The position numbers were made by a program, and so were the translations under genes. Shown in pieces: positions 3,648-56,849 of a DNA stretch of 64,000 bases. The notes under the pieces were generated by a model. That model did not search any database, had not been told where the DNA came from, and saw nothing but the letters and a program-made list of their open reading frames with translations. Position 1 is the first letter of the stretch. Every line of letters starts with the position of its first letter. The DNA comes from an uncultured Pseudomonadales bacterium (GTDB lineage: Bacteria; Patescibacteriota; Microgenomatia; UBA1400; UBA12028). The stretch lies in the NCBI GenBank assembly GCA_964509365.1, contig CAZDWN010000001.1, positions 11,074 to 75,073 of the forward strand, given 5' to 3'.

Positions 3648-5345
3648 ATGTCAGCTACTCCGACTACAGTTGAGATACAGACACTTCATAATTGTATCAA
3701 ATCCCCGCCAATTGCATACTTCTGCGCTGAGTTCGCTGTGGATGAAAAACTTCCGATCTACGCAGGAGGCCTGGGTATCCTCGCCGGCGATGTCCTCTGC
3801 CAAGCGCATGAGGACGGGCGAAGTTATGTCGGAATTGGCATGCTCTATCACGGCGGGTACTTGCGGCAAGAAATATCCAAAGAAGCAAATATTCATACGA
3901 CGGAAAATCTAGACCCAATCAAGTCTGAGCTCCAGCTGGTCGTCGATCAAGGGAAGCCAGTGGTGATCACCGTGCCGATCCATGCACGTCAAGTCAAAGT
4001 CAAAGCTTGGGTGCAAATGATCGGGACCATTCCGCTCATTTTGCTTGATACCGATGTCGAAGGCAACGAAGCGCAAGATATCAAACTCTGTGATCAACTG
4101 TATGTAGGGGATAAAGAGCATCGATTCAAACAAGAAATGATTCTCGGGATCGGTGGAGCGCGGATGCTGAAGGCATTCAAAATCGAACCTAAGATCTATC
4201 ATCTCAATGAAGGACATTCCGCGTTGTTGACGTTTGAACTCGCCAAAGAGCGAGTGACCAACGGGAAGAACAAGAATATCCAAGAAGTGCTGGAACACTT
4301 GGGAAATATCGTCTTCACCAATCACACAGTCGTCCCTGCAGGCAATGATGTATTTTCAAAAGATTTGGTCATCTCGTATCTCTCCTCATTTTGTCTCGAA
4401 TTTCCAGTCGATCCGACGGTGTTGACGACGTTTGGCCTCATCCAAGATACGTCGCTGTTTTCACCGACGATGCTGGCATTGCGACTCGCAACCGTCAACC
4501 AAGCGGTGAGCAAACTCCATGCGGCGAAGGCGTTGGAGATGTGGACTGATCATCCGATGATCGGGATCACCAATGGAGTGCGACAGAAATTTTGGCAATC
4601 TCAAGAAATAGTCGACAGTCTACAGACTACAGATGACGAAAAATTGTGGGAAGCCCACAAAGCACGCAAGAAAAAACTCTTAGCGTATATAAAGACAGTG
4701 ACTGGCTTTGAGTGGCCAGAAGAAACCATGGTCATCACGTGGGCACGACGCCTCGCAAATTACAAACGTCCGCTCCTCTTGTTTGAGCAACTAGAGCGAC
4801 TCGAAGCGCTGCTCGCTCACGATCCGCCAGTGAGACTCTTGATGTCGGGAAAACCACATGCGCACGATGATGCGGCGCAAGAAAATCTCAAGAAAATTCT
4901 TGAGCTCGTCGGCAAGTACGACGGCAAGATCGTCTACCTTCAAAACTATAGTATTGATATGGCGCGGCATATCATGTCTGGAAGTGATGTCCTCCTCAAT
5001 ACTCCGATCCGCGGATTTGAAGCGTGTGGCACCAGCGGCATGAAAGCGAGTATGAACGGAGTGTTGCAATGCACGACGCTCGATGGCTGGACTGATGAAG
5101 TGAAGTGGGAAGGGATCGGATGGACGATCGATGACGCCAACGCAGGAAATACCCTGTACGATCACCTGGACAAAGAAATTGTCTCACTGTACTTCACGCG
5201 AGATGAGCAGGGAGTTCCCACGGAATGGGTGGCACGCATGCGCAAGACGATCACGATGGCAGTGCCTGCATATACTGCCAAGCGCATGCTCGAAGAACTG
5301 GATGCCAAAGTGTATTCACAGATAAAAGAGCAGGCGATCAGTTGA
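3648..5345 (+). CDS. glgP: Alpha-glucan (glycogen/maltodextrin) phosphorylase, GT35
   Basis: N-terminal YFCAEFAVDEKLPIYAGGLGILAGD. Pyridoxal-phosphate lysine motif CGTSGMKASMNGV. 565-aa short-type phosphorylase. Confidence 0.85.
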   Translation: MSATPTTVEIQTLHNCIKSPPIAYFCAEFAVDEKLPIYAGGLGILAGDVLCQAHEDGRSYVGIGMLYHGGYLRQEISKEANIHTTENLDPIKSELQLVVDQGKPVVITVPIHARQVKVKAWVQMIGTIPLILLDTDVEGNEAQDIKLCDQLYVGDKEHRFKQEMILGIGGARMLKAFKIEPKIYHLNEGHSALLTFELAKERVTNGKNKNIQEVLEHLGNIVFTNHTVVPAGNDVFSKDLVISYLSSFCLEFPVDPTVLTTFGLIQDTSLFSPTMLALRLATVNQAVSKLHAAKALEMWTDHPMIGITNGVRQKFWQSQEIVDSLQTTDDEKLWEAHKARKKKLLAYIKTVTGFEWPEETMVITWARRLANYKRPLLLFEQLERLEALLAHDPPVRLLMSGKPHAHDDAAQENLKKILELVGKYDGKIVYLQNYSIDMARHIMSGSDVLLNTPIRGFEACGTSGMKASMNGVLQCTTLDGWTDEVKWEGIGWTIDDANAGNTLYDHLDKEIVSLYFTRDEQGVPTEWVARMRKTITMAVPAYTAKRMLEELDAKVYSQIKEQAIS

Positions 5346-10200: not shown

Positions 10201-11718
10201 TTACACTTCAAATTTTTTCTTCACGTAGGTGATGAAGCTTTCAGCAGACACGTGTTTACCCGTGAGCTTAAGTGACACTTCGCCCGAGGTGGACATCGCG
10301 CCACCAGCATGGACTTTGTCTCCGAGCCACGTGCGAATGATATCGAACTTGCCATTTCGCACATCATCATCAAAATCTGGATGCTCTTTGTGCAAAGTCT
10401 CTGAAAGTTGGACGGAGAGGAAACTCCCAAGTGAGTACGTCGGGAAATATCCGATCAATCCTTGGGACCAGTGAATATCCTGCAAGACTCCAAGCAAATC
10501 ATCGGGTACATCGACATCCAGATACTGTTTGTAGAGTGCATTCCATGCGTCACGAAGATCTTTGACTGCCAGCGTCCCTTCGATCATGCGCTGCTCCAGC
10601 TGCGCGCGGATCGCGATATGCAGATGATAGGTGACTTCATCAGCATCGACACGAATGAGGCTTGGTCTGATCACATTGACCTCGGCCCAAGCTTGGTGTG
10701 CCGTAGTACCCGCTAACTGTGTAGGGAATGCAGTCTGTAATACCGGGAAGAAATACTCCCAGAACTGTGGCGATTTGCCGATGATATTTTCAAAAAAACG
10801 AGATTGCGATTCGTGGATCACGAGTGAGTCTGCCATCCCGAGACGAGTACGCGCAATCTCAGGCGCGATGCCTTGCTCGTACATCCCGTGGCCACCTTCG
10901 TGAATCGACGAGAGGATGGTCGAGAGCGGATTGTCAGTGATGACGCGTGTCGTGAGACGCACATCACTGGTGGCGACTCCCATCGTAAATGGATGCGTCG
11001 AGATATCTTGTCGCCCAGCTTCCAGATCAAAGCCGAGCTCCGCAAGCAATGTCATCGTCACACTCCACAGCGTCTTCTCATCAAACTCTTGGTGAAAAAC
11101 TTTCTTGTCCCAGGTGCTCGTCTTCGCGCGTAGACTTTTGATCAGAGGAGTGAGGTGAACGATGAGATCTTCAAAGATCGCATCGACATGCTTGGCGCGA
11201 AGATCACGCTCATACTCTTCAAGCAATGCATCGTACGGGGAATCCGTAAACCCATAGGCGTAGGCAACTTCTTTTTTGAGCTCGACCATGCGCGTCAAGG
11301 CAGGGACAAATACCTCAAACTTGTTTTGATTTCTGGCGTGCTTCCATTCTTCCAGTCCTACTGATGATTGTTTACTGATCGCGGAGACGAGGCTGCTAGG
11401 TAATTTTTTTGCGAGTGTAAAGTCGCGAGTCATACACGTGATCAAGGCACGATCGTGAGCGGTAAACTGTCCAGGATTTCGCTGCAATTCTTCACTCAAT
11501 GTGGCGAGGAGCGTGCTTAGTTTTTGCGAGGTCGCTTTGCTATGGATGATCGTCGAGAGCGTCTCAAGCTGATGCGCTCGAGCCAGACCGCCTTTGTGAG
11601 GAAGATACGTCTCTTGATCCCACGCGAGAAGACCCGAGATTGACGAGAGATCTCGCATCATCTCACTGTAGGTGACAAGGTCGTTTATTTTTGGATTTGA
11701 TCGAGTGAAGACCGACAT
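10201..11718 (-). CDS. Carboxypeptidase Taq-like metallopeptidase, family M32
   Basis: HEGGH zinc motif plus M32 signatures HESQSRFFEN and IHWSQGLIGYFPTYSLGS. Confidence 0.85.
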   Translation of the reverse strand: MSVFTRSNPKINDLVTYSEMMRDLSSISGLLAWDQETYLPHKGGLARAHQLETLSTIIHSKATSQKLSTLLATLSEELQRNPGQFTAHDRALITCMTRDFTLAKKLPSSLVSAISKQSSVGLEEWKHARNQNKFEVFVPALTRMVELKKEVAYAYGFTDSPYDALLEEYERDLRAKHVDAIFEDLIVHLTPLIKSLRAKTSTWDKKVFHQEFDEKTLWSVTMTLLAELGFDLEAGRQDISTHPFTMGVATSDVRLTTRVITDNPLSTILSSIHEGGHGMYEQGIAPEIARTRLGMADSLVIHESQSRFFENIIGKSPQFWEYFFPVLQTAFPTQLAGTTAHQAWAEVNVIRPSLIRVDADEVTYHLHIAIRAQLEQRMIEGTLAVKDLRDAWNALYKQYLDVDVPDDLLGVLQDIHWSQGLIGYFPTYSLGSFLSVQLSETLHKEHPDFDDDVRNGKFDIIRTWLGDKVHAGGAMSTSGEVSLKLTGKHVSAESFITYVKKKFEV

Positions 11719-13070: not shown

Positions 13071-13154
13071 GCCGACGTGGCGGAACTGGCATACGCGCAG
13101 GACTTAGAATCCTGTGATCGCAAGATCGTGGAGGTTCAACCCCTCTCGTCGGCA
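13071..13154 (+). tRNA. tRNA-Leu (anticodon TAG), class II with long variable arm
   Basis: Acceptor GCCGACG/CGTCGGC. Anticodon stem CAGGA/TCCTG with loop CTTAGAA. Long variable arm TGATCGCAAGATCG. T-arm GGAGGTTCAACCCCTC. CCA not encoded. Confidence 0.85.
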
Positions 13155-28857: not shown

Positions 28858-29430
28858 TCAGTTGTTCCGGAGCGTGATCGAAGCACTAAAGGGGATGGAG
28901 ACTTTGTCTCGTGCACTTCCAGCCGCATTTTTTTCAAGTGTAAAACTCATCGTGACGATGGGAGGTGAACCGTCCCAACCACTCTGGCCATACGTACTTG
29001 GACTGCACGAAAACTGTAAAGTCCCAGTCGATGGGATCGTCAGATCTGTGGGCGCCATATCGGAATCAGTTCCATTGATTGTTGCTTCGAGTTTCCCGGC
29101 TTTCGTCCAGTAGCTGGTGATCGTGCCATCTTGGTTTTCGACAGAGATCGACTTCATGTTGGAATTGCAGATAGCTGACGGAGTATCTTTGTTCGCGACG
29201 ATTTTGCGAGCATTGCGGATGGTAAACGTCATTTGGCTGAGGATTTGGCCACCAGCTTGTTTGGCGTACTCACCAGAAGCAGTTTTGCCTCCGCCGACAA
29301 ACGTCGTAAAAAAAAGTGACACTGCGGTCAGGAGCAAAATTGCTGCCAGTCCGATCACGACGACCAGTTCAATTAACGTGTATCCATTGTTTTTTTTGGA
29401 ATTTGGATTTTGGATTTTGGATTTTTTCAT
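28858..29430 (-). CDS. Prepilin-type N-terminal cleavage/methylation domain protein (minor pilin)
   Basis: Class III signal peptide NNGYTLIELVVVIGLAAILL. Confidence 0.75.
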   Translation of the reverse strand: MKKSKIQNPNSKKNNGYTLIELVVVIGLAAILLLTAVSLFFTTFVGGGKTASGEYAKQAGGQILSQMTFTIRNARKIVANKDTPSAICNSNMKSISVENQDGTITSYWTKAGKLEATINGTDSDMAPTDLTIPSTGTLQFSCSPSTYGQSGWDGSPPIVTMSFTLEKNAAGSARDKVSIPFSASITLRNN

Positions 29431-29431
29431 G

Positions 29432-29890
29432 TTATTTCCACTGATAGAGTGTGACGGTCGATTCTGATTTCAAGACTCTCGATCCATCATTCCACGTCAC
29501 CGTCGCCACTGCCTGGATGGAGCTTGCTGTCGGTTTGGTGATCTGGATTTGGCGATAGAACTGACCTGAGATCATATTGTTTACGTTGGTGCCGCAGGCA
29601 GTGTTCGTCAAGTTTGCAAATGCCTTGTAATCCGCAGGGAGCGTCTTCATACAGTACGGGTTCCCAGTTTTACTGATGGCATAAAACGTTTCCCAGCCAG
29701 CTTGATCTCGCAAATTACGAAGTGACTCCAACGATTCGCGCACGTATTCCTTTGCGGTGGCTTGATCCTTGGCGATCCGGCTATTGCGCACACCGATGGA
29801 GATCCCAGAAACGAGTGTCGTCAGCACCAGGACCACGAGGCCGGCGGCGATGATGACTTCGATGAGCGTTTGTCCTGATTGGCTTTTCAT
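29432..29890 (-). CDS. Prepilin-type minor pilin
   Basis: SGQTLIEVIIAAGLVVLVL. Translationally coupled to its neighbours. Confidence 0.7.
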   Translation of the reverse strand: MKSQSGQTLIEVIIAAGLVVLVLTTLVSGISIGVRNSRIAKDQATAKEYVRESLESLRNLRDQAGWETFYAISKTGNPYCMKTLPADYKAFANLTNTACGTNVNNMISGQFYRQIQITKPTASSIQAVATVTWNDGSRVLKSESTVTLYQWK

Positions 29891-34907: not shown

Positions 34908-34993
34908 ACATAGGTGTAGAAAGTAGTATGTAGCGAGTAGTAAGGGTTTTTGTATTTCTTCCTTGCTACTTTCTACTTACTGCTTACTACTTT
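34908..34993. repeat. Heptanucleotide (GTAGNNN)n inverted-arm repeat element, pilC-pilT intergenic
   Basis: gtagaaa gtagtat gtagcga gtagtaa ... ctacttt ctactta ctgctta ctac. A purine-rich arm is followed by its pyrimidine-rich complement. Confidence 0.6.
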
Positions 34994-36076
34994 TCACCGC
35001 TTTACTAAGCGAGCTAATTGGTCTGGCCACTGAGCGACAGCTTCTGCATCTTGATACGAGATTTGACCTTGGTTCACGAGTTTGGCGAGACTGGCTTCCA
35101 GTGAGATCATGCCCATGTCTGAAGATGTTGAGATCACGTTGTCCAGCTGGAACGTTTTTCCTTCACGCACGATATTGCGGACAGCTCCATTTGCGAGCAG
35201 GACTTCGACAGCCGGGATGCGATCATCTTGCAAGGTATGCATCAATCGTTGTGAGACGACAGCTTGGAGCGTGTTCGCAAGCTGCATTCTGACTTGACCT
35301 TGCTGATGCTCTGGGAAGACGTCGATGATACGATCAATGGTTTGTGATGCAGAGTTGGTGTGGAGTGTGGCAAAGACGAGGTGTCCCGTCTCCGCGACAG
35401 TGAGTGCGGCTGCGATCGTCTCGTAGTCTCGCATCTCGCCGACGAGCACGACATCTGGATCCTCGCGCAGTGCAGATTTGAGGGCGACTTCCCAGGAGTG
35501 CGTATCCGCATGCAGTTCACGCTGTGAGATGATACTTTTCTTGCGCGTGTAAATAAACTCGATTGGATCCTCGATGGTGAGGATGTGTTCACCACGATTG
35601 GTGTTGATCTCGTCGATGATCGCGGCGAGGGACGATGATTTACCTTGACCTGTTGGGCCAGTAAAGAGGATAAAGCCTTGCTTCATCGTCGTGAATTGGT
35701 GGAGGATCGGAGGCAATCGCAATTCCTCGATCGTACGGATCTTTGCAGGGATGAGACGCAGAGCAGCTGCAAGCGTCCCTTTGTGGTAGTAGGCGTTGAC
35801 GCGGAATCTACCAATGTCTTTAAACTGAAATGAAAAGTCGACTTCTTTATTGACAAGCAATTGATCCTTAAATTCTTGCGTGAGCAGACCGAAGATCAAT
35901 GTTTGGGAGTGAGCGGCATCGAGGACATCTTCTCCTTCGATCGGCACCAGCTGGCCATTCACGCGCAGACAGGGTGGGGAACCGACGATCAAATGCAAAT
36001 CAGACGCACCTTGCGTGGCACACAGTGAAAGCATCTCTTCAATAGTCATAGCGTTTCCTTTATATCCATTGCTCAT
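34994..36076 (-). CDS. pilT: Twitching motility retraction ATPase PilT
   Basis: ASDLHL N-terminal motif, Walker A GPTGQGKSS, ~360 aa PilT size. Confidence 0.85.
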   Translation of the reverse strand: MSNGYKGNAMTIEEMLSLCATQGASDLHLIVGSPPCLRVNGQLVPIEGEDVLDAAHSQTLIFGLLTQEFKDQLLVNKEVDFSFQFKDIGRFRVNAYYHKGTLAAALRLIPAKIRTIEELRLPPILHQFTTMKQGFILFTGPTGQGKSSSLAAIIDEINTNRGEHILTIEDPIEFIYTRKKSIISQRELHADTHSWEVALKSALREDPDVVLVGEMRDYETIAAALTVAETGHLVFATLHTNSASQTIDRIIDVFPEHQQGQVRMQLANTLQAVVSQRLMHTLQDDRIPAVEVLLANGAVRNIVREGKTFQLDNVISTSSDMGMISLEASLAKLVNQGQISYQDAEAVAQWPDQLARLVKR

Positions 36077-36159
36077 TTAATACTTACACATATTCCTGTC
36101 AGTGTACAGTTGCTAGAGAAGTAGTAAGCAAACTACATACTACTTACTGCTTGCTACTT
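36077..36159. repeat. Heptanucleotide inverted-arm repeat element, pilT-pilB intergenic
   Basis: agaagtagtaagcaaa ... ctacata ctactta ctgcttg ctacttc. Same family as 34908-34993. Confidence 0.6.
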
Positions 36160-37953
36160 CTAAACCTGCGCCACACGCAAGACTTCTTCGATTGTCGTGA
36201 TCCCATCGAGCGCTTTGAGATACCCGTCTTGTTTCATGAGCATCATGCCGTCTTCCAGCCCTTGTTTCTCGATATCGTTAGCGGTCTGATGTTCCAGCAC
36301 GAGTCGTGCGATCTTGTCATTCATGGTGATGACCTCAAAGATACCGATACGACCAGAATATCCCGTATCATCATTGGATTTTGATTTGACACCTCGATAC
36401 AGCTTCATTGGTTTACCATCCATTCCTTTTGATTTGGCCCACCCATCATAGAGCGCTCCTAGCACAGTGCGGATATCTTTTTCGACCGCAGGCTCTGGAG
36501 TGTATTCTTCTTTTTCATCTGCGATTTTTCGCACGACACGTTGTGCCATGACGAGCGTGATGGATGATGCAAGCAAGAATGGTTCCATTCCCATATCGAG
36601 GAGACGAGGGAGTGCACCGGCGGCGGAGTTCGTGTGCAACGTTGAGAAGACGAGGTGACCCGTGAGAGATGCTTGCACCGCAAGTTCCGCAGTCTCGCTA
36701 TCACGGATTTCTCCCACCATGATGATATTTGGATCTTGGCGCAAAAAAGATCGGAGTCCTGATGCAAATGTCAGTCCGGCTTGCGGGTTGATTTGGACTT
36801 GGTTGATACCTTCCATTTGATACTCGACAGGATCTTCGAGTGTCATGATGTTCACTTTTGGTGAGTTGATCTTATGGAGGAGCGAGTAGAGCGTCGATGT
36901 TTTTCCTGACCCCGTTGGACCAGTGACCAGGACAATTCCGTGAGGGACGTTTGAGGCAGTCTCGAGCCTGGTAAGGGCAGTACCTCGCAGTCCCAGTTCA
37001 GACAAAGTAGGGATTGCACCGGATTTTTTCAACAAACGCATGACGATCTTCTCGCCGTGCACCGTCGGCAGCGTCGAGATACGCAAATCGACTTCATCGG
37101 CTTGTGTACGAAAGGTAAAGCGACCGTCTTGTGGCACACGTTTCTCATCGATCTTCAAATCAGAGAGGATCTTAATACGAGAGACGAGTGCTGGATGGAC
37201 ACTTTTGGGGAGCACGAGTTTTTCCGTCAAGATACCGTCGATACGATAGCGGACGCGTGTCCTGGTCTCGAGTGGTTCGATATGGACGTCAGACGCGCGA
37301 GACTTGACGGCAAACGCGAGGATGGTCTCGACGATTTTGGCGATTGGCGCTTCGCGAATGATCTCATTACTATTGGCTTGGCTGATATCGATCTCGACTC
37401 CACTCGCTACGAGTGTTTGGCCTTGATCCGTTTCTTTGAGTGCCGCAGTGACTTCACTCGTCAGACTCTGCGCGTACCGTTCACTGATCGCTCGATCGAC
37501 TTCATACTCCGAGCCGATACTGACGATCACTTTGCGACCCGTTTTTTTCTGTACGAAGTCCAAAGCAAGCAAGTCACTCGGATTGATCATCGCGATCGAC
37601 ACTGAGTGATCTTCATCATTGAGGGCATAGGGGATCAGTCTGTAGCGTCGCGCCACACTTTCGGGGATGATGGAGAGCGCTTGCGGCGCTATCCCCGTCT
37701 CAGAGAGTTTGACGTAGGGGACGTTGTACGCTTTCGCTTTCGCTTGTGTGAGGACTTCTTCGTTGACGAGATTTTTATCTTTGATCAGTTCATCGATCGT
37801 TTTATTGGAGTTGATGTGCTCAAGTGCGAGATCATCATATTGCGCTTGGGTGATATTTCCTTGGGTGAGGAGGATCTGCGCAGCGTTCGTCGCGGTAAAA
37901 CCGACGTTTGAGAATTGCGATGAATCAGTAGCTTGTGACTGGGCAGAGTCCAT
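36160..37953 (-). CDS. pilB: Type IV pilus assembly ATPase PilB (GspE family)
   Basis: Walker A GPTGSGKTST. GspE N-terminal domain. ~600 aa. Confidence 0.9.
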   Translation of the reverse strand: MDSAQSQATDSSQFSNVGFTATNAAQILLTQGNITQAQYDDLALEHINSNKTIDELIKDKNLVNEEVLTQAKAKAYNVPYVKLSETGIAPQALSIIPESVARRYRLIPYALNDEDHSVSIAMINPSDLLALDFVQKKTGRKVIVSIGSEYEVDRAISERYAQSLTSEVTAALKETDQGQTLVASGVEIDISQANSNEIIREAPIAKIVETILAFAVKSRASDVHIEPLETRTRVRYRIDGILTEKLVLPKSVHPALVSRIKILSDLKIDEKRVPQDGRFTFRTQADEVDLRISTLPTVHGEKIVMRLLKKSGAIPTLSELGLRGTALTRLETASNVPHGIVLVTGPTGSGKTSTLYSLLHKINSPKVNIMTLEDPVEYQMEGINQVQINPQAGLTFASGLRSFLRQDPNIIMVGEIRDSETAELAVQASLTGHLVFSTLHTNSAAGALPRLLDMGMEPFLLASSITLVMAQRVVRKIADEKEEYTPEPAVEKDIRTVLGALYDGWAKSKGMDGKPMKLYRGVKSKSNDDTGYSGRIGIFEVITMNDKIARLVLEHQTANDIEKQGLEDGMMLMKQDGYLKALDGITTIEEVLRVAQV

Positions 37954-43387: not shown

Positions 43388-46063
43388 ATGGCAGATACCA
43401 CCGAAAAACCATCCGAAGAAGCAGAGATCACCCCAGTCGTGGTCGACCCGACAGCCGATTATTCGACCAGATTTGGGACGATTCGTCCGACCTCGATCAT
43501 CACTGAGATGCAAAAGTCATATCTTGACTACGCCATGAGTGTGATCGTCGCTCGTGCACTTCCGGATGTCCGCGATGGGTTAAAGCCGGTGCATCGCCGT
43601 ATTTTGTTTGCCATGAAGGAAATGGGCATCCGCTGGAACACTCCATACAAGAAGTCTGCTCGTATCGTCGGAGAAGTCTTGGGTAAGTATCACCCACATG
43701 GTGATGCTCCAGTATACGAAGCAATGGTTCGTTTGGCGCAAGATTTCTCCATGCGCTATCCACTCGTGGATGGTCAGGGAAACTACGGAAGTATAGACGG
43801 CGATTCCGCAGCCGCCATGCGTTACACCGAAGCGCGTATGGCCAAGATCAGTGAAGAGCTGCTGGCTGATTTGGAAAAAGAAACAGTCTCGTTTGTCGAT
43901 AACTTTGACGGATCTTTACAAGAGCCGAGTGTCTTACCAGGAAAACTTCCAAACCTCTTATTGATGGGATCAGAAGGTATCGCTGTCGGTATGGCGACCA
44001 AGATCCCTCCACACAACTTGACTGAAGTCTGTAATGCCATTCTCAAAGTAATTGAAATGGGAGAGGCAAAACAAGAGATAAGAGACAAGAGACAAGAGAC
44101 AGAAGAATTGAATGTCGAGACCGGTGAAGCCAAACTCATCGCTGGACACTTTGACTCCGAAGCCACGATAGACGATATTTGTGAATTCGTCCAAGGTCCA
44201 GACTTCCCGACAGCGGGCACCATCTATGATTTCAAAGAGATCAAAGAAGCGTACGCGACTGGTCGCGGTCGTATCTTGATCCGAGGCAAAGCTGAGATCG
44301 TCGAAAATAAAAATGGAAAATTCCAGATCATTGTCACCGAGTTGCCATATCAGGTCAATAAAGCCAAACTGGTCGCCAAGATTGCACAATTGGCCAGAGA
44401 CAAAAAGTTGGTAGGGATTGCGGATCTTCGTGATGAGTCAGACCGCGACGGTATGCGCATCGCCTTTGATCTGAAGAAAGATGCTCGTCCAAAGTCAGTG
44501 CTCAACGCGCTCTACAAGATGACCGAGCTGCAGACGACGTTCCCGATGAATACGGTGGCGATCAACTCCGAAGGTACGCCACAGCTCATGAACGTCAAGA
44601 CGATCATGATGGAATACATTCGTCATCGTCAGACGGTGGTCGTGAAGCGAGCGCAATTTGACCTCAAAGCCGCTCGAGCGCGAGCGCATATCCTCGAAGG
44701 ATTGCTCATTGCTCTTTCAAACTTGGATGCCGTCATCAAGACCATTCGCGAATCCAAAGATTCTGACGAAGCAAAGAAGAACTTGATGGAACGATTCAAA
44801 CTTTCAGAGATCCAGTCAGTAGCCATCCTCGATATGCAGCTACGAAAGCTTGCAGCACTTGAGCGATTGAAGATCGAAGAAGAGTACAAAGCACTCATGA
44901 AGTTCATCGAAGAATTATTGACACTTTTGAAGAGTCCAAAGAAAATCTTGGAGACGATTGGCACCGAAGTGAAGCAAATGATCGAGACGCATGGCGATGC
45001 CCGTCGGACCAAAGTCCACAAAGGCAAGCTTGGAGAGATCAATGAAGAAGATTTGATCCCAAATGAACCGACGATCATCACCGTCACCGAGACTGGATAT
45101 ATCAAGCGACTCAATCCATCTGCATATCGCACCCAGCATCGCGGAGGCAAGGGCGTCAGTGGAATGACGACAAAAGATGAAGATGCAGTTTCAGAACTCC
45201 TGACTTGTGATACGCATGATAGTTTGCTGTTGTTTACCAATAAAGGTCGCGTGTTTAAGAACAAAGTCTATGAATTGCCAGAGTCTTCACGCATAGCCAA
45301 AGGGCAAGCGATCGTGAACTTGGTGAACTTGACTGCCGATGAGCACATCCAAGCGATCTTGACACTTAATGAGAAGAGTCCAGCAGGCAAATACATTTGT
45401 CTTGCGACTCTCAAAGGGATGATCAAGAAGACCCCACTTGCGGACTTCTCAAATATCCGTACCTCAGGCATCATCGCCATCATTTTGAAAGATAATGACG
45501 AGTTAGTCTTTGGTCGCATCACCACTGGTGAAGATCACATCATGATCGTAACCAACGAAGGCAAGTCGATCCGCTTCCACGAAAAAGAAGTAAAGAGTAG
45601 TAATCGCGATACTCAAGGAGTGAAGGGCGTCGAACTCAAAGGAACTGACTATGTCGTCGGCGTCGAGAGTTTCCCACCAGAACTGGCGATCCCTGAAGAC
45701 AAACGTAAGAAATTCTTCCGCCATGTCTTGGTCGTCACTGAAAAAGGAATGGGCAAGCAAACTGAGTTGACTGAGTATCCACTGCAAAAGCGAGCGGGCT
45801 TAGGAGTCAAAGTGAGTGAGATTGCTGACAAGACTGGGAAAGTTGCCTGTGCTAAGATCGTCGACGAGACAATTGATGATGTCGTTTTGACTACAAAATC
45901 AGCGCAAGTGATTAAGTTGCCACTTCGGAACATTCCTGTACTCAAACGTCCGACTCAAGGAGTGATCTTGATGCGCCTCGACAAGGGTGATTTGATTACT
46001 GCCTGCGCGACGACCAAAAAGCCAGTTGAGGAAGAAATTGCGGAAGGCAGTCTGGAAGTTTAG
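43388..46063 (+). CDS. gyrA: DNA gyrase subunit A
   Basis: [25 protein letters not shown] with active-site Tyr region. C-terminal beta-pinwheel repeats. Confidence 0.95.
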
Positions 46064-50584: not shown

Positions 50585-50650
50585 ACCACTTCCCCCCTGC
50601 TCTACCTTGCTACTTCCTACTTTCTGCTTGCTGCTTCTCGAGGAAGATCC
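50585..50650. repeat. Heptanucleotide repeat element (cttgctacttcctactttctgcttgctgcttct)
   Basis: Pyrimidine-rich arm of the GTAGNNN family. Near-identical core to the tgt insertion. Confidence 0.5.
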
Positions 50651-51473: not shown

Positions 51474-52030
51474 ACGGTAGCATTATGCCACACGCCGTCG
51501 ACATCGTCTTGTGCTTCGATCGCTTGGATCAGATTTTCGATTTGCTCAAATTGCGTTTGCTCGACTTGGAGGGGGATCGAGACTGTATATTCTCCATCGG
51601 TGAGAGTGAAGAGATAGCTCGCGGCTCCTGGCCCTGCGAGACTTCCATTATGTTGTGAAAAAATACTGCGGATTTCTCCAGCCGTCCGCTGCTTATTGTC
51701 AGTACGGACTTGGATCAAGATCCCGACTCCATTCGGGCCATATCCTTCGTAGATGATCTCCTCCAAGCTTGCCCCGCTATCGCTCTTCCCTGCTCCTCTT
51801 TTGATCGCGCGCGCTACGTTCTCATTGGGCATGTTTACAGCCCGAGCCTTATCCATAGCGAGGCGCAGTGAGGGGTTTTCATCAGGATTCGTGATGCCAC
51901 TTTTCTTTACTGCTGAGATGATGAGTCGCGCGACGGCGGTGAACTCTTTGCTGCGTTTTTGATCTTGGACGCCTTTGCGTTTGGCGATGTTACTAGAGTG
52001 TGAGTGTCCGGACATGTTTCTAAGTAGCAA
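51470..52030 (-). CDS. yebC: YebC/PmpR-family transcriptional regulator (short, 186 aa)
   Basis: N-terminus MSGHSHSSNIAKRKG...KEFTAVARLI matches YebC (MAGHSKWANIKHRK). Shorter than the usual ~240 aa. Confidence 0.65.
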   Translation of the reverse strand: MLLRNMSGHSHSSNIAKRKGVQDQKRSKEFTAVARLIISAVKKSGITNPDENPSLRLAMDKARAVNMPNENVARAIKRGAGKSDSGASLEEIIYEGYGPNGVGILIQVRTDNKQRTAGEIRSIFSQHNGSLAGPGAASYLFTLTDGEYTVSIPLQVEQTQFEQIENLIQAIEAQDDVDGVWHNATV

Positions 52031-52110
52031 GTAGAAAGTAGAGAGCAGTAGGGGAAGACAAACTTTCCTTACTCCTTACTACATACTACTTACTACTTCC
52101 TCCTAGAATT
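52020..52110. repeat. Heptanucleotide inverted-arm repeat element
   Basis: aagtagc aagtaga aagtaga gagcagt ... tactcct tactaca tactact tactact. Confidence 0.6.
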
Positions 52111-53970: not shown

Positions 53971-55209
53971 CTAGTCACTAACCACTAGGGACTTTCTCAT
54001 CTGCTCGCACAATCTGATCATAAATCTCACGTTGTGGATACTAGCGAGTCGGTAGTACGAGAGTTCTTTGGTCTTGGCAAGATGGTGGAGATACCCACGA
54101 CTGTATCCATGTGTGCAGGTGTAGCAGTCACAACCCTCCTGGATCACTGACGTATCTGTCTCGAATCGCTTATTCCCAATCAGTAATCTGTTTTTGGAAA
54201 ATTCTGAATTCAGCTTCCACTCTCCACTCTCCACTCGCAACTCGCAACTATACAAGGCTCCATTCCGTGCCAGACGCGTGGGCGCGACGCAGTCAAACAT
54301 GTCAAATCCATACGAGATCGCATCGATAATATCTTGTGGATTACTCCCAAGTCCCATCGCATACCGAGGTTTGTCTTGTGGAAGGAGACTTTCGATCCAA
54401 CTCATCACTTCCCCGGTACCTTGCATGTTGTATCCGATGGTCTCGCCACCGATAGCGACGCCGTCAAATCCCATGCCGCTGATCACTCTGGCAGACTCTT
54501 CACGCATCGACCGATGGAGTGCACCTTGCACGATCCCAAATAGCGCTTGGTAGTTTCCCTGGCTCGACGACTTCCCTGCTCGCTCCCATTCTTCTTTGCT
54601 TTGCCGGCTCCATCGATGGGTGCGATCGAGCGCTTGACGGGCATACGTTTCGTCAGCTCCGTCTGGAGTACATTCATCAAATGCCATGATGATATCTGCG
54701 CCGATGTCTCGTTGGATTTGGATGGATTTTTCAGGAGTAAAAAAATGTTTTGTCCCATCAAGATGTGAAGTGAACTCCACGCCTTCGTCAGTGATCTTCG
54801 CCGGAGCCATCGATTGAATTGTATTCTTGCTACTTGCTGCTTGCTGCTTACTACTCAGTTGCTTCCCAAGCGAAAAAACTTGGAATCCTCCACTGTCCGT
54901 GAGCACCGGCCGATCCCATTTCATCATTGTTTGCACTCCTCCGAGCTCATTGACGATCTTCTCCCCAGGTCGAAGATACAGATGATACGTGTTTGCAAGC
55001 ATGATCGGAGCGCCAGTGGCTTTCACGTCATCCGCATCGAGCGCTTTGACACTTGCCTGCGTCCCGACCGGCATGAAGATCGGAGTCGGCACATCACCGT
55101 GCGGAGTATGCATGACCCCAGCGCGGGCTTTACCCTGAGCCTGCCGAAGGGCCTTATTTTTTGTAGCTACCAGTTCAAAAGAAAAAGCATTCATTCCTGT
55201 ATTGTACAA
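53971..55209 (-). CDS. tgt: Queuine tRNA-ribosyltransferase (tRNA-guanine transglycosylase) with in-frame low-complexity insertion
   Basis: TIM-barrel Tgt motifs (VMHTPHGDVPTPIFMPVGT, LANTYHLYLRPG, DCVAPTR). C-terminal zinc site CDCYTCTH. 412 aa against the usual ~375. Inserted SSKQQAASSKN is encoded by heptad repeats. Confidence 0.85.
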   Translation of the reverse strand: MYNTGMNAFSFELVATKNKALRQAQGKARAGVMHTPHGDVPTPIFMPVGTQASVKALDADDVKATGAPIMLANTYHLYLRPGEKIVNELGGVQTMMKWDRPVLTDSGGFQVFSLGKQLSSKQQAASSKNTIQSMAPAKITDEGVEFTSHLDGTKHFFTPEKSIQIQRDIGADIIMAFDECTPDGADETYARQALDRTHRWSRQSKEEWERAGKSSSQGNYQALFGIVQGALHRSMREESARVISGMGFDGVAIGGETIGYNMQGTGEVMSWIESLLPQDKPRYAMGLGSNPQDIIDAISYGFDMFDCVAPTRLARNGALYSCELRVESGEWKLNSEFSKNRLLIGNKRFETDTSVIQEGCDCYTCTHGYSRGYLHHLAKTKELSYYRLASIHNVRFMIRLCEQMRKSLVVSD

Positions 55210-55517
55210 TCAAATTACTATGAAAAAGAAAATGCTCATTGGCGTGTCTATTTTTGCGCTTCTGTTCGTTGTTGGAGTTACAGTCTGGCGAGGTGCAGTC
55301 GTCGTCGATTGTTTCCCCTATTTGGGATCGATTCAAGAGCAACGGGACCGTGAAGACCAACGGTTTCAACGATTCAGTGCAGGAGAGAAAGTAAGAGCAA
55401 AGATATTTGGGACGCGTTGCGGTTCCTACTGAAGAGCTTCGACGGATACATTACTCTTCAATATTTCTGATACCTATTTTGTCTCTTCCCTGGTGTTGTG
55501 GTTCTCACAGTTAAACT

Positions 55518-55739: not shown

Positions 55740-56849
55740 ATGACACTTTCTGATTTTGATTACACTCTTCCCCCAGAAAAGATCGCACAGAAGCCTGTGG
55801 ATCCGCGTGACACTAGTAAACTCCTGATCGTCGACCGAAAGGATAAAAGCTTCACTGACAAACACTTTTATGATTTGGCAGACTTGCTCACTCCAGATGA
55901 CGTGCTGGTTTTAAATAACACGAAGGTTTTTCCGGCTCGTCTTCTGGTGCACAAAACGGGTACGGCAGAGACGGGTCAGAGACCGGTCTCTACCAGAAAA
56001 CCGATCGAACTCCTGTTAGAGAAAGAGGTTGCGGTGACTGCAGATACGATCTCATGGGATGCGTTGACCAAACCAGGATTGAAAGTCGGAGATACATTTG
56101 AGATACCGGGAAGCCATGTGACGGGAGTGTGTGAAGAAGTGCACGACTACACGCGCAAAGTGACGTTTCACATCAACCGAGAGCATTTCTTCTCGCAACT
56201 CGATCGCTGGGCGAAGACGCCAATCCCTCCGTATATTCGATGGAATACAGATGACGAGTCACACTTACGTGAGGTGTATCAGACGGTGTACGCAAAATAC
56301 AATGGTGCGATCGCCGCCCCGACCGCCGGACTACATTTCACATCTGAGCTACTCGCCAAATTACGATCCAGAGGAATACAGATCGAAGAAGTGACGCTCC
56401 ATGTCGGACTCGGGACATTCCTACCTGTGAAGACCGATGACATTACTGCGCATGCGATGCATAGTGAGTGGTTTGAGTTATCGCCAGAGACCGCTCACAA
56501 TTTGAATGAAGCCAAAGCCGCAGGCAAACGCATTATCGCGGTTGGCACAACTGTCGTCCGTGTGCTCGAATCATGTTCTTTCCTCATAGCTACAAGCTAT
56601 CAGCTCCAAGCTAGACGTGCTACCACGTCGATTTTTATTTACCCTCCGTACCAGTTCAAATTTGTCGATAGCATCATCACGAATTTTCACACACCCAAGT
56701 CGACGCTCTTGATGCTAGTCTCCGCATTCGTGACACAAGAAATTCCGTTCACGACTTTTGCAGACTGTTTGATCGGCAAGGCATATCAGCATGCGCTGGA
56801 CTCAGACTATCGCTTCTATAGTTTTGGTGACTCCATGTGGATTCAGTAG
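55740..56849 (+). CDS. queA: S-adenosylmethionine:tRNA ribosyltransferase-isomerase
   Basis: MTLSDFDYTLPPEKIAQKPVDPRDTSKLLIV N-terminus and overall QueA length. Confidence 0.9.
   Translation: MTLSDFDYTLPPEKIAQKPVDPRDTSKLLIVDRKDKSFTDKHFYDLADLLTPDDVLVLNNTKVFPARLLVHKTGTAETGQRPVSTRKPIELLLEKEVAVTADTISWDALTKPGLKVGDTFEIPGSHVTGVCEEVHDYTRKVTFHINREHFFSQLDRWAKTPIPPYIRWNTDDESHLREVYQTVYAKYNGAIAAPTAGLHFTSELLAKLRSRGIQIEEVTLHVGLGTFLPVKTDDITAHAMHSEWFELSPETAHNLNEAKAAGKRIIAVGTTVVRVLESCSFLIATSYQLQARRATTSIFIYPPYQFKFVDSIITNFHTPKSTLLMLVSAFVTQEIPFTTFADCLIGKAYQHALDSDYRFYSFGDSMWIQ

Follow-up and report, generated by a model that had tools for sequence, protein, structure and literature searches.

An in-frame heptanucleotide repeat in a variable loop of Tgt from a Patescibacteria genome: probably a tolerated microsatellite

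The gene tgt, which encodes queuine tRNA-ribosyltransferase, contains a tandem array of 7-nt units read in frame as SSKQQAASSK in a 64-kb stretch of contig CAZDWN010000001.1, which belongs to an uncultured member of the Patescibacteria (Candidate Phyla Radiation, CPR). This whole stretch of DNA is here referred to as the window. We consider it likely that the array is a heptanucleotide microsatellite carried as a tolerated in-frame passenger in a loop of the enzyme, and that it is not an on/off switch. Heptanucleotide microsatellites were already known; here they are found in a CPR genome, where they recurrently build in-frame loop insertions in Tgt, in GyrA and in a pilin leader.

Results

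The heptad tract and the enzyme that carries it

53971..55194, minus strand: tgt (queuine tRNA-ribosyltransferase), 407 aa from the probable ATG at 55194
54799..54864, minus strand: loop 1 of Tgt, KQLSSKQQAASSKNTIQSMAPA, of variable length, between GGFQVFSLG and KITDEGV
54826..54855, minus strand: heptad array of 4.3 units in loop 1, from Tandem Repeats Finder

The array was reported by Tandem Repeats Finder at 54826-54855 with period 7, 4.3 copies and 86% matches, and its score at lag 7 is 18 matches out of 21. On the plus strand it reads CTTGCTA CTTGCTG CTTGCTG CTTACTA CT, with imperfect units, and the longest perfect period-7 run within it is 17 nt, or 2.4 units. Divided into heptads, the coding strand is AG TAGTAAG CAGCAAG CAGCAAG TAGCAAG, and the codons AGT AGT AAG CAG CAA GCA GCA AGT AGC AAG give SSKQQAASSK within ...GKQLSSKQQAASSKNTIQSMAPAKIT.... 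The in-frame heptad repeat that a first-pass annotation of this DNA had described in tgt is confirmed at these positions.

Compared with the solved Tgt proteins of E. coli and Z. mobilis, the window Tgt is covered over residues 23-408 with E = 7e-89, and its TDSGG, DEC, GLG..PQD and CDCYTC...H motifs are intact and aligned with those of E. coli Tgt. The catalytic and zinc motifs are invariant across the 23 sequences of an alignment of the closest homologs; we take their roles to be those of the catalytic aspartates (TDSGG, DEC, GxG..xD) and of the CxCxxC...H zinc site. The closest relatives of the window Tgt are Patescibacteria proteins, and protein P0001, which is 100% identical to it over 407 aa, has PF01702 as its precomputed domain. 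An AlphaFold2 model of the window Tgt, with a mean predicted local distance difference test (pLDDT) of 84.8, was matched to Z. mobilis TGT by Foldseek with E = 1e-37 and a target-normalised template modelling score (TM-score) of 0.88-0.89. As modelled, the enzyme keeps the Tgt fold, namely a TIM barrel with a zinc subdomain.

The protein had been called unusually long at an earlier stage, and this stands for the enzyme as a whole: it has 407 aa, while solved Tgt proteins have 375-386 aa, and its aligned core is 43 aa longer than that of E. coli Tgt. The heptad tract, however, supplies only 8-10 of these residues. The gene had also been labelled essential. Since tgt is dispensable in model bacteria where it has been deleted, that label is not established.

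Loop 1 among Tgt homologs

Alignment to the solved Tgt structures, the check that the first-pass annotation had proposed, places the insertion in a loop, where E. coli Tgt has a 19-aa gap opposite loop 1 of the window. The connector at this site has 9 residues in non-CPR Tgt versus 18-45 residues in CPR Tgt. As a control, a metagenome scan with the Tgt query returned distant relatives of at most 54% identity, mostly non-CPR, which carry the standard 9-residue segment. Among the 23 aligned sequences the extra length of loop 1 over E. coli ranges from 0 (P0011) to about 36 aa (P0036); extra residues are present in almost all aligned Patescibacteria Tgt, P0011 being the one that has none. Within the closest clade the loop has 9 to 21 residues, and its sequence is unrelated from genome to genome. 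In the AlphaFold2 model, pLDDT is below 50 at residues 104-113 and 116-129, which belong to loop 1. Because of the gap in E. coli, the length variation among homologs and the low pLDDT, the tract sits in a variable, probably disordered surface loop of Tgt. A site so variable in length, where almost all aligned Patescibacteria Tgt carry extra residues, is not a conserved part of the enzyme.

The same alignment bears on the idea that the peptide itself was selected, that is, that a K/Q/S/A-rich extension is favoured for protein function, for example by contacting tRNA near the active-site entrance, with heptads serving only as the mutational route. The extended loop is kept in almost all aligned Patescibacteria Tgt, it starts nine residues past the active-site GGFQ segment, and a more distant subgroup conserves KNPFD.KAE...GNDL.P in it. 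However, the loops of the close clade are unconserved, with unrelated sequences of 9 to 21 residues, P0011 has no insertion at all, and the AlphaFold2 model gives no confident structure at loop 1. We find a selected extension improbable.

Heptad units at the same loop in related genomes

54826..54846, minus strand: three units CAGCAAG CAGCAAG TAGCAAG (21 nt), the simplest gain over short-loop orthologs; their placement within the array is ambiguous

We compared the gene with its orthologs at the DNA level. The nearest syntenic ortholog, L001 (83% protein identity), has the short loop ADKKAGDMK, and in the DNA alignment the window is longer by 24 nt precisely at the array. We infer that this gain was made of three heptads (21 nt), beside a unit that matches ...GATAAG of L001, and of a separate 3-nt difference farther along. 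The earlier notion that three units of 7 nt (21 nt) preserve the reading frame agrees with this to the extent that three units fit the gain; about 4.3 units are present, and the excess is 24 nt.

The comparison of tgt in related genomes, likewise proposed in the first-pass annotation, revealed that loop 1 is heptadic elsewhere with different units: AGAGACA in L002 and L003 (17/21), AAATCCA in L004 (17/21) and GGGGAAA in L206 (15/21). A codon-level and lag-7 comparison found no heptad signal in loop 1 of the short-loop orthologs L001, L207 and L205, and these three are the close relatives (at least 74% Tgt identity) whose sampled DNA is without heptad arrays. For a background we scored 84-nt tiles and counted those reaching at least 17/21 at a given lag. 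About 1% of tiles did so at lag 7, and essentially none at lags 6, 8 and 9 in the window, L001, L002, L004 and L205; in L207 a masked N run yields about 0.5% background at every lag. In each tgt gene the lag-7 signals are confined to two loops, loop 1 and a second one (loop 2). Between species, loop 1 differs in the presence of an array, in its unit and in its length, and tgt is in frame in all nine close orthologs examined.

These data also bear on the contingency switch proposed in the first-pass annotation, in which frequent slippage by one unit would reversibly switch Tgt, and with it tRNA queuosine modification, between off and on states in the population. In its favour, the 7-nt unit is no multiple of three, the tract lies within the open reading frame (ORF), and tgt has two heptad tracts. 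A one-unit change does truncate Tgt in silico, as that annotation had anticipated, with a stop at aa 124 after gain of a unit and at aa 235 after loss of one. Heptads drive phase variation elsewhere, in the hmwA promoters of H. influenzae, where 7-bp ATCTTTC repeats of 13-24 perfect units control surface adhesin genes (PMC8262952). The tract in tgt, however, has imperfect units and only 2.4 perfect ones (17 nt), and no frameshifted allele was found among the nine orthologs. Because the experimentally studied heptad switch has 13-24 perfect units, a switch is unlikely on these two grounds, and there are others. The tract lies in the middle of a gene for a housekeeping tRNA-modification enzyme, not in a surface or restriction-modification gene; the tracts of sister genomes are decayed by point mutation, as expected of neutral sequence; and no variant allele is present in the protein collection, where the Tgt cluster has one member. 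Taken together, we regard a switch as very improbable.

The CTTNCTN family in the window

We searched the whole window for the pattern (CTTNCTN)x2.9 with at most two mismatches and compared the result with shuffled sequences. There were 20 matches, at five places, versus 0.16 expected from the shuffles. The five places are 34917-34996, 36118-36163, 50606-50640, 52018-52102 and 54826-54860; four of them are intergenic and the fifth is the tgt array, which matches the pattern with zero mismatches. The tgt tract and the intergenic elements are of the same family, as had been noted in the first-pass annotation.

34917..34996, no strand assigned: intergenic heptad hairpin between the T2SSE-family ATPase (pilT-like) and T2SSF (pilC-like) genes
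36118..36163, no strand assigned: intergenic heptad hairpin directly 3' of the stop of the pilB-like gene
50606..50640, plus strand: solitary intergenic heptad arm downstream of the DUF5656 gene; no hairpin (z = -0.3)
52018..52102, no strand assigned: heptad hairpin in the intergenic region of the divergent yebC-like and TPR genes

Three of the four intergenic sites are inverted pairs of arms that give long imperfect hairpins. The one at 34917..34996 consists of an AAGNAGN arm and a CTTNCTN arm and folds with -25.7 kcal/mol (z = -4.2), the one at 52018..52102 folds with -35.6 and -33.7 kcal/mol (z = -4.4 and -4.5), and the one at 36118..36163 has a 14-bp stem with a fold z of only -1.4. The array in tgt is a single arm without a hairpin (RNA fold z = +0.5), and a hairpin at this tract is ruled out by that value. 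The intergenic hairpins have no U-tail, and two of them stand directly after stop codons in the pilB-pilT-pilC-like gene row. Scans with Rfam and for tRNA genes gave nothing at any heptad site, their sole match being a tRNA-Leu at 13071.

The region 50585-50650 had been described as nearly identical to the tgt core, which overstates the likeness: of 31 positions compared between the tgt array and the arm at 50606, 25 are identical, the two share no string longer than 13 nt, and only 3 of the 8 variable unit positions agree. With the arm at 34962, 27 of 31 positions are identical. With so few of the variable positions in agreement, the tgt tract is not a copy of the 50606 element; the two are members of one family.

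A copy from some intergenic CTTNCTN array is nevertheless a rival to be weighed. Template switching, ectopic gene conversion or some unknown mobilising activity would then have brought the tract in, and its happening to be in frame in a tolerant loop would have let it persist. It is the sole coding array of a family that holds all five intergenic arrays, it matches two arms at the levels just given, and no CTTNCTN array was found in the syntenic relatives L001-L004, so that the family is wholly absent there. Against this, outside the five positions per unit that define the family the sequences are no more alike than by chance (the 3 of 8 above), the tract lacks defined ends, terminal inverted repeats and target-site duplications, tgt has a single arm without a hairpin, and the tract could have grown from an ancestral seed such as the GATAAG of L001. 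The 24-nt string common to the pilin leader and L004 tgt, and the single unit family of both tgt loops in L004, which are described below, suggest that copying between sites can occur. On balance, we hold that the tract was rather unlikely to have been copied in. A mobile element resembling miniature inverted-repeat transposable elements (MITE) or repetitive extragenic palindromes (REP) was rejected: both the length of the arms and the order of the units change from site to site, tgt lacks a hairpin, and nothing but the positions that define the family is common to the tgt array and the remaining arms.

The counts also decide whether the tract is an ordinary lineage-specific loop that is periodic by accident. 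Hydrophilic low-complexity loops are common, and the first-pass annotation had named, as the mark of an ordinary loop, insertions in other lineages that share the position but not the sequence; this holds in part, since other Patescibacteria Tgt carry extra residues of unrelated sequence. However, three more lineages have heptads in this loop, the background being about 1% of tiles, and the 18/21 score at lag 7 goes together with zero-mismatch family matches where 0.16 are expected in the whole window. Chance resemblance is effectively refuted by the family-match, lag-7 and background counts, and we give it next to no credence.

Each related genome seems to have intergenic unit families of its own (GGACAGA, CAAGGTA and CGTTTAT in L004, TCTGAAA in L002). 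In L004 an array of six GGACAGA units, at 11201-11254, begins at the tgt stop codon.

Other heptad arrays and the bias to period 7

We further looked for arrays of other units in the window. Those scoring at least 17/21 number ten at lag 7 and zero at lags 5, 6 and 8-11. The ten comprise five intergenic arrays, which are all CTTNCTN, and five coding arrays, of which only tgt loop 1 is CTTNCTN.

54209..54251, minus strand: heptad array of tgt loop 2, encoding SCELRVESGEWK (Tandem Repeats Finder rows at 54216-54249)
44066..44111, plus strand: in-frame heptad array AAGAGAC in gyrA (43388..46063), 20/21 matches at lag 7
29387..29434, minus strand: in-frame AAAATCC array in the type IV pilin-like leader MKKSKIQNPNSKK (ORF 28858..29430)

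The coding strand of loop 2 is made of AGTTGCG twice, AGTGGAG twice and AGTGGAA, with 19/21 matches at lag 7, and SCELRVESGEWK forms a beta-hairpin insertion after NGALY in Tgt. At this site an array of about six units, with a constant length of 14 aa, is found in seven orthologous loci from six lineages, and it is clearest in L208 and L209, where GGAAAAT/TGAAAAT encodes GKLKIEN-GKLxxES. Judged from these units, loop 2 seems to hold an old array, shared among the lineages and now in decay, parts of which were locally duplicated again in the window. Strong concerted evolution of its units is not claimed, the identity of orthologous units being only slightly above that of non-orthologous ones.

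The gyrA array belongs to a 34-aa insertion that solved GyrA structures lack, and gyrA of L208 has an AGTNCGC heptad array at the same site. The unit of the window gyrA array (AAGAGAC) is also the unit of the loop 1 array in tgt of L002 (AGAGACA). The AAAATCC array forms most of the pilin-like leader before G/YTLIELVVV, where the protein has a PF07963 N_methyl match, and it shares the exact 24-nt string CAAAATCCAAAATCCAAATTCCAA with the tgt loop 1 array of L004 (L004:10330-10353). In L004 both tgt loops are built from one unit family. A weaker in-frame array (17/21) lies at 4605-4640 on the plus strand, in a carbohydrate phosphorylase-like ORF (3648..5345); its units are AGTCGAC AGTCTAC AGACTAC AGATGAC, and it encodes IVDSLQTTDD.

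Neighbouring genes and other insertions

55740..56849, plus strand: queA, the divergent neighbour of tgt (PF02547, E = 2e-116)
55129..55152, minus strand: 24-nt insertion GCCCTTCGGCAGGCTCAGGGTAAA near the Tgt N-terminus, encoding ALRQAQGK, from the protein alignment

QueA acts at the queuosine-pathway step next after Tgt, and the tgt/queA arrangement is syntenic in all related loci. In the list of mechanically called ORFs, tgt extends over 53971..55209 with a TTG start at 55209. An antisense ORF at 54814..55353 was judged a mechanical artefact of the CTT strand having open frames.

The ALRQAQGK insertion is found only in the window Tgt among the 23 aligned sequences, and it is non-heptadic, with a lag-7 score of 7-8/21. 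It is bordered by AAGGCC and AAAGCC, and the model has pLDDT below 50 at residues 15-19. The queA gene has its own 8-aa insertion relative to orthologs, AETGQRPV (55955-55995, plus strand); it overlaps with a direct repeat of 11 nt (CAGAGACGGGT / CAGAGACCGGT) and with the palindrome GAGACCGGTCTC, which is 12 nt long. At the same position the queA ortholog of L004 has a different insertion, of 22 aa.

Discussion

The explanation that we favour starts from the anatomy of the tract, its membership in a family, the variability of the loop, the intact enzyme motifs and the recurrence of heptads in orthologs. A short and already decaying heptanucleotide microsatellite would have lengthened a surface loop of Tgt by about eight codons, three 7-nt units being added beside a pre-existing ...TAAG unit, together with a separate 3-nt change. 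The mechanism would be slippage, and nearly all tandem repeats that the window genome and some of its close relatives generate would have a period of 7 nt. Such arrays may accumulate between genes, here all of them CTTNCTN and often as inverted pairs able to form hairpins. Within genes an array would survive under three conditions only: that it alters the length by a net multiple of three, that its unit is free of stop codons whichever of the three frames it is read in, and that the site tolerates a hydrophilic low-complexity peptide; loops 1 and 2 of Tgt, the GyrA insertion and the pilin leader may be such tolerant sites. Tgt would stay functional, and the tract itself, presumably neutral and without function, would be a record of the growth and turnover of the loop.

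Four points weigh against this explanation. First, the 24 extra nt are not a multiple of 7, so a second event must be assumed. Second, among 38 ortholog indels in a 20-kb syntenic block, only those in tgt loop 1 are heptadic; it is ruled out that all indels of this neighbourhood are, and tolerance of the loop alone therefore leaves the repeated hits on tgt unexplained. Third, the tract in tgt loop 1 is the only coding CTTNCTN array, as it might be if copied from an intergenic element. Fourth, AAAATCC (the 24-nt exact match) and AGAGACA (window gyrA and L002 tgt) recur across genes and genomes, and such sharing may point to a limited repertoire of units or to copying.

These points can be read as traces of an active, sequence-biased heptad-writing process in this Patescibacteria clade, one that repeatedly creates and overwrites in-frame surface-loop peptides of conserved housekeeping proteins, namely in both loops of Tgt, in the GyrA insertion and in the pilin leader; we put this forward as a tentative and less probable proposal. 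It might consist of slippage with a bias, or of copying from one array to another by templating, and the dominant unit family might be set by a factor specific to the genome. Taken as one, the variants with copying in or with a biased process hold a minor, though appreciable, share of our belief. If such a process exists, identical cassettes across genes and genomes would reflect copying and not coincidence, and the lineage-specific insertions that are typical of proteins in CPR bacteria would in part stem from 7-nt microsatellites.

Under the tolerated-microsatellite explanation the tract alone would be a harmless passenger, and the biology of Tgt would be unchanged. What it offers is a checkable mutational route to lineage-specific loop insertions, and to their turnover, in conserved enzymes of reduced CPR genomes: slippage by 7 nt, filtered to net multiples of three and to units free of stops. 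The preference of bacteria for heptamers, which is poorly understood, would be extended to a new phylum and to coding sequence. The case is also a caution that unit length alone is insufficient to call a repeat within a gene a phase-variation switch.

Comparison with known heptad systems

Arrays of (CTTNCTR)n occur in many phyla, as we found by a scan of reference genomes in which 91 of 108 were outside open frames among the matches listed. Again among the matches listed, the phyla are Bacteroidota, Acidobacteriota, Cyanobacteria, Verrucomicrobiota, Patescibacteria and Firmicutes, and the arrays (loci L005-L124, for example L019:6150-6260, L027:1620-1700, L059, L092 and L123) are often perfect, often beside arrays of related heptads and sometimes in inverted pairs. 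One of them, on a Massilia glaciei contig (L053:324-433), is a (CTTGCTG)n array longer than 100 nt; the strand opposite to it has an open frame, from which repeats of SSKQQAA, the peptide of the window Tgt tract, would be translated. It is a candidate coding sequence only.

Heptads of this kind reportedly include the STRR (short tandemly repeated repetitive) sequences of cyanobacteria described by Mazel et al. in 1990. Heptamer simple repeats are over-represented in bacteria, with slippage as the proposed cause, according to the summaries of Mrazek et al. 2007 in PMC4679880 and PMC4692102. TAACTGA repeats are known from Beggiatoaceae, Cyanobacteria and Bacteroidetes, and arrays within ORFs, at tolerant and peripheral positions of the protein, have been described as well (MacGregor 2015, PMC4679880); GGGAATC repeats are known from Xanthomonas and Nostoc (Rehm et al. 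2015, PMC4692102). The arrays of the window resemble these long simple sequence repeats (LSSR) and STRR in their tandem 7-nt units, in the preference for period 7 over other periods, in their mostly intergenic location with occasional inverted pairs and occasional tolerant positions within ORFs, and in their patchy, lineage-specific distribution. They differ in the host, which belongs to the Patescibacteria, in the unit family CTTNCTN, in lying in frame in internal loops of housekeeping enzymes (Tgt twice, and GyrA), and in recurring at identical loops of sister genomes with different units. No literature linking Patescibacteria to heptamer repeats was found.

STRR heptamers are also said, after Vioque in 1997 as cited in PMC2858038, to lie inside the RNase P RNA gene of heterocyst-forming cyanobacteria. 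The likeness is that a heptad array is tolerated in an essential, conserved gene at a structurally variable position. An RNA gene, however, has no frame to keep, whereas the array in tgt must keep the frame and avoid stops. With REP- and MITE-like hairpins the window shares three intergenic heptad sites that are imperfect hairpins after stops or between genes of an operon. Unlike those elements, their arms are tandem heptads of variable number without a full-length consensus, there are no terminal repeats or target duplications, and the copy in tgt is a single arm that forms no hairpin. The phase-variable hmwA repeats have in common with the tgt tract a 7-nt unit, and a one-unit change would alter expression in tgt too, here by frameshift. 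They differ from a tract that stands in the middle of an ORF, with 2.4 perfect units, in the gene of a tRNA-modification enzyme for which no variant alleles were seen.

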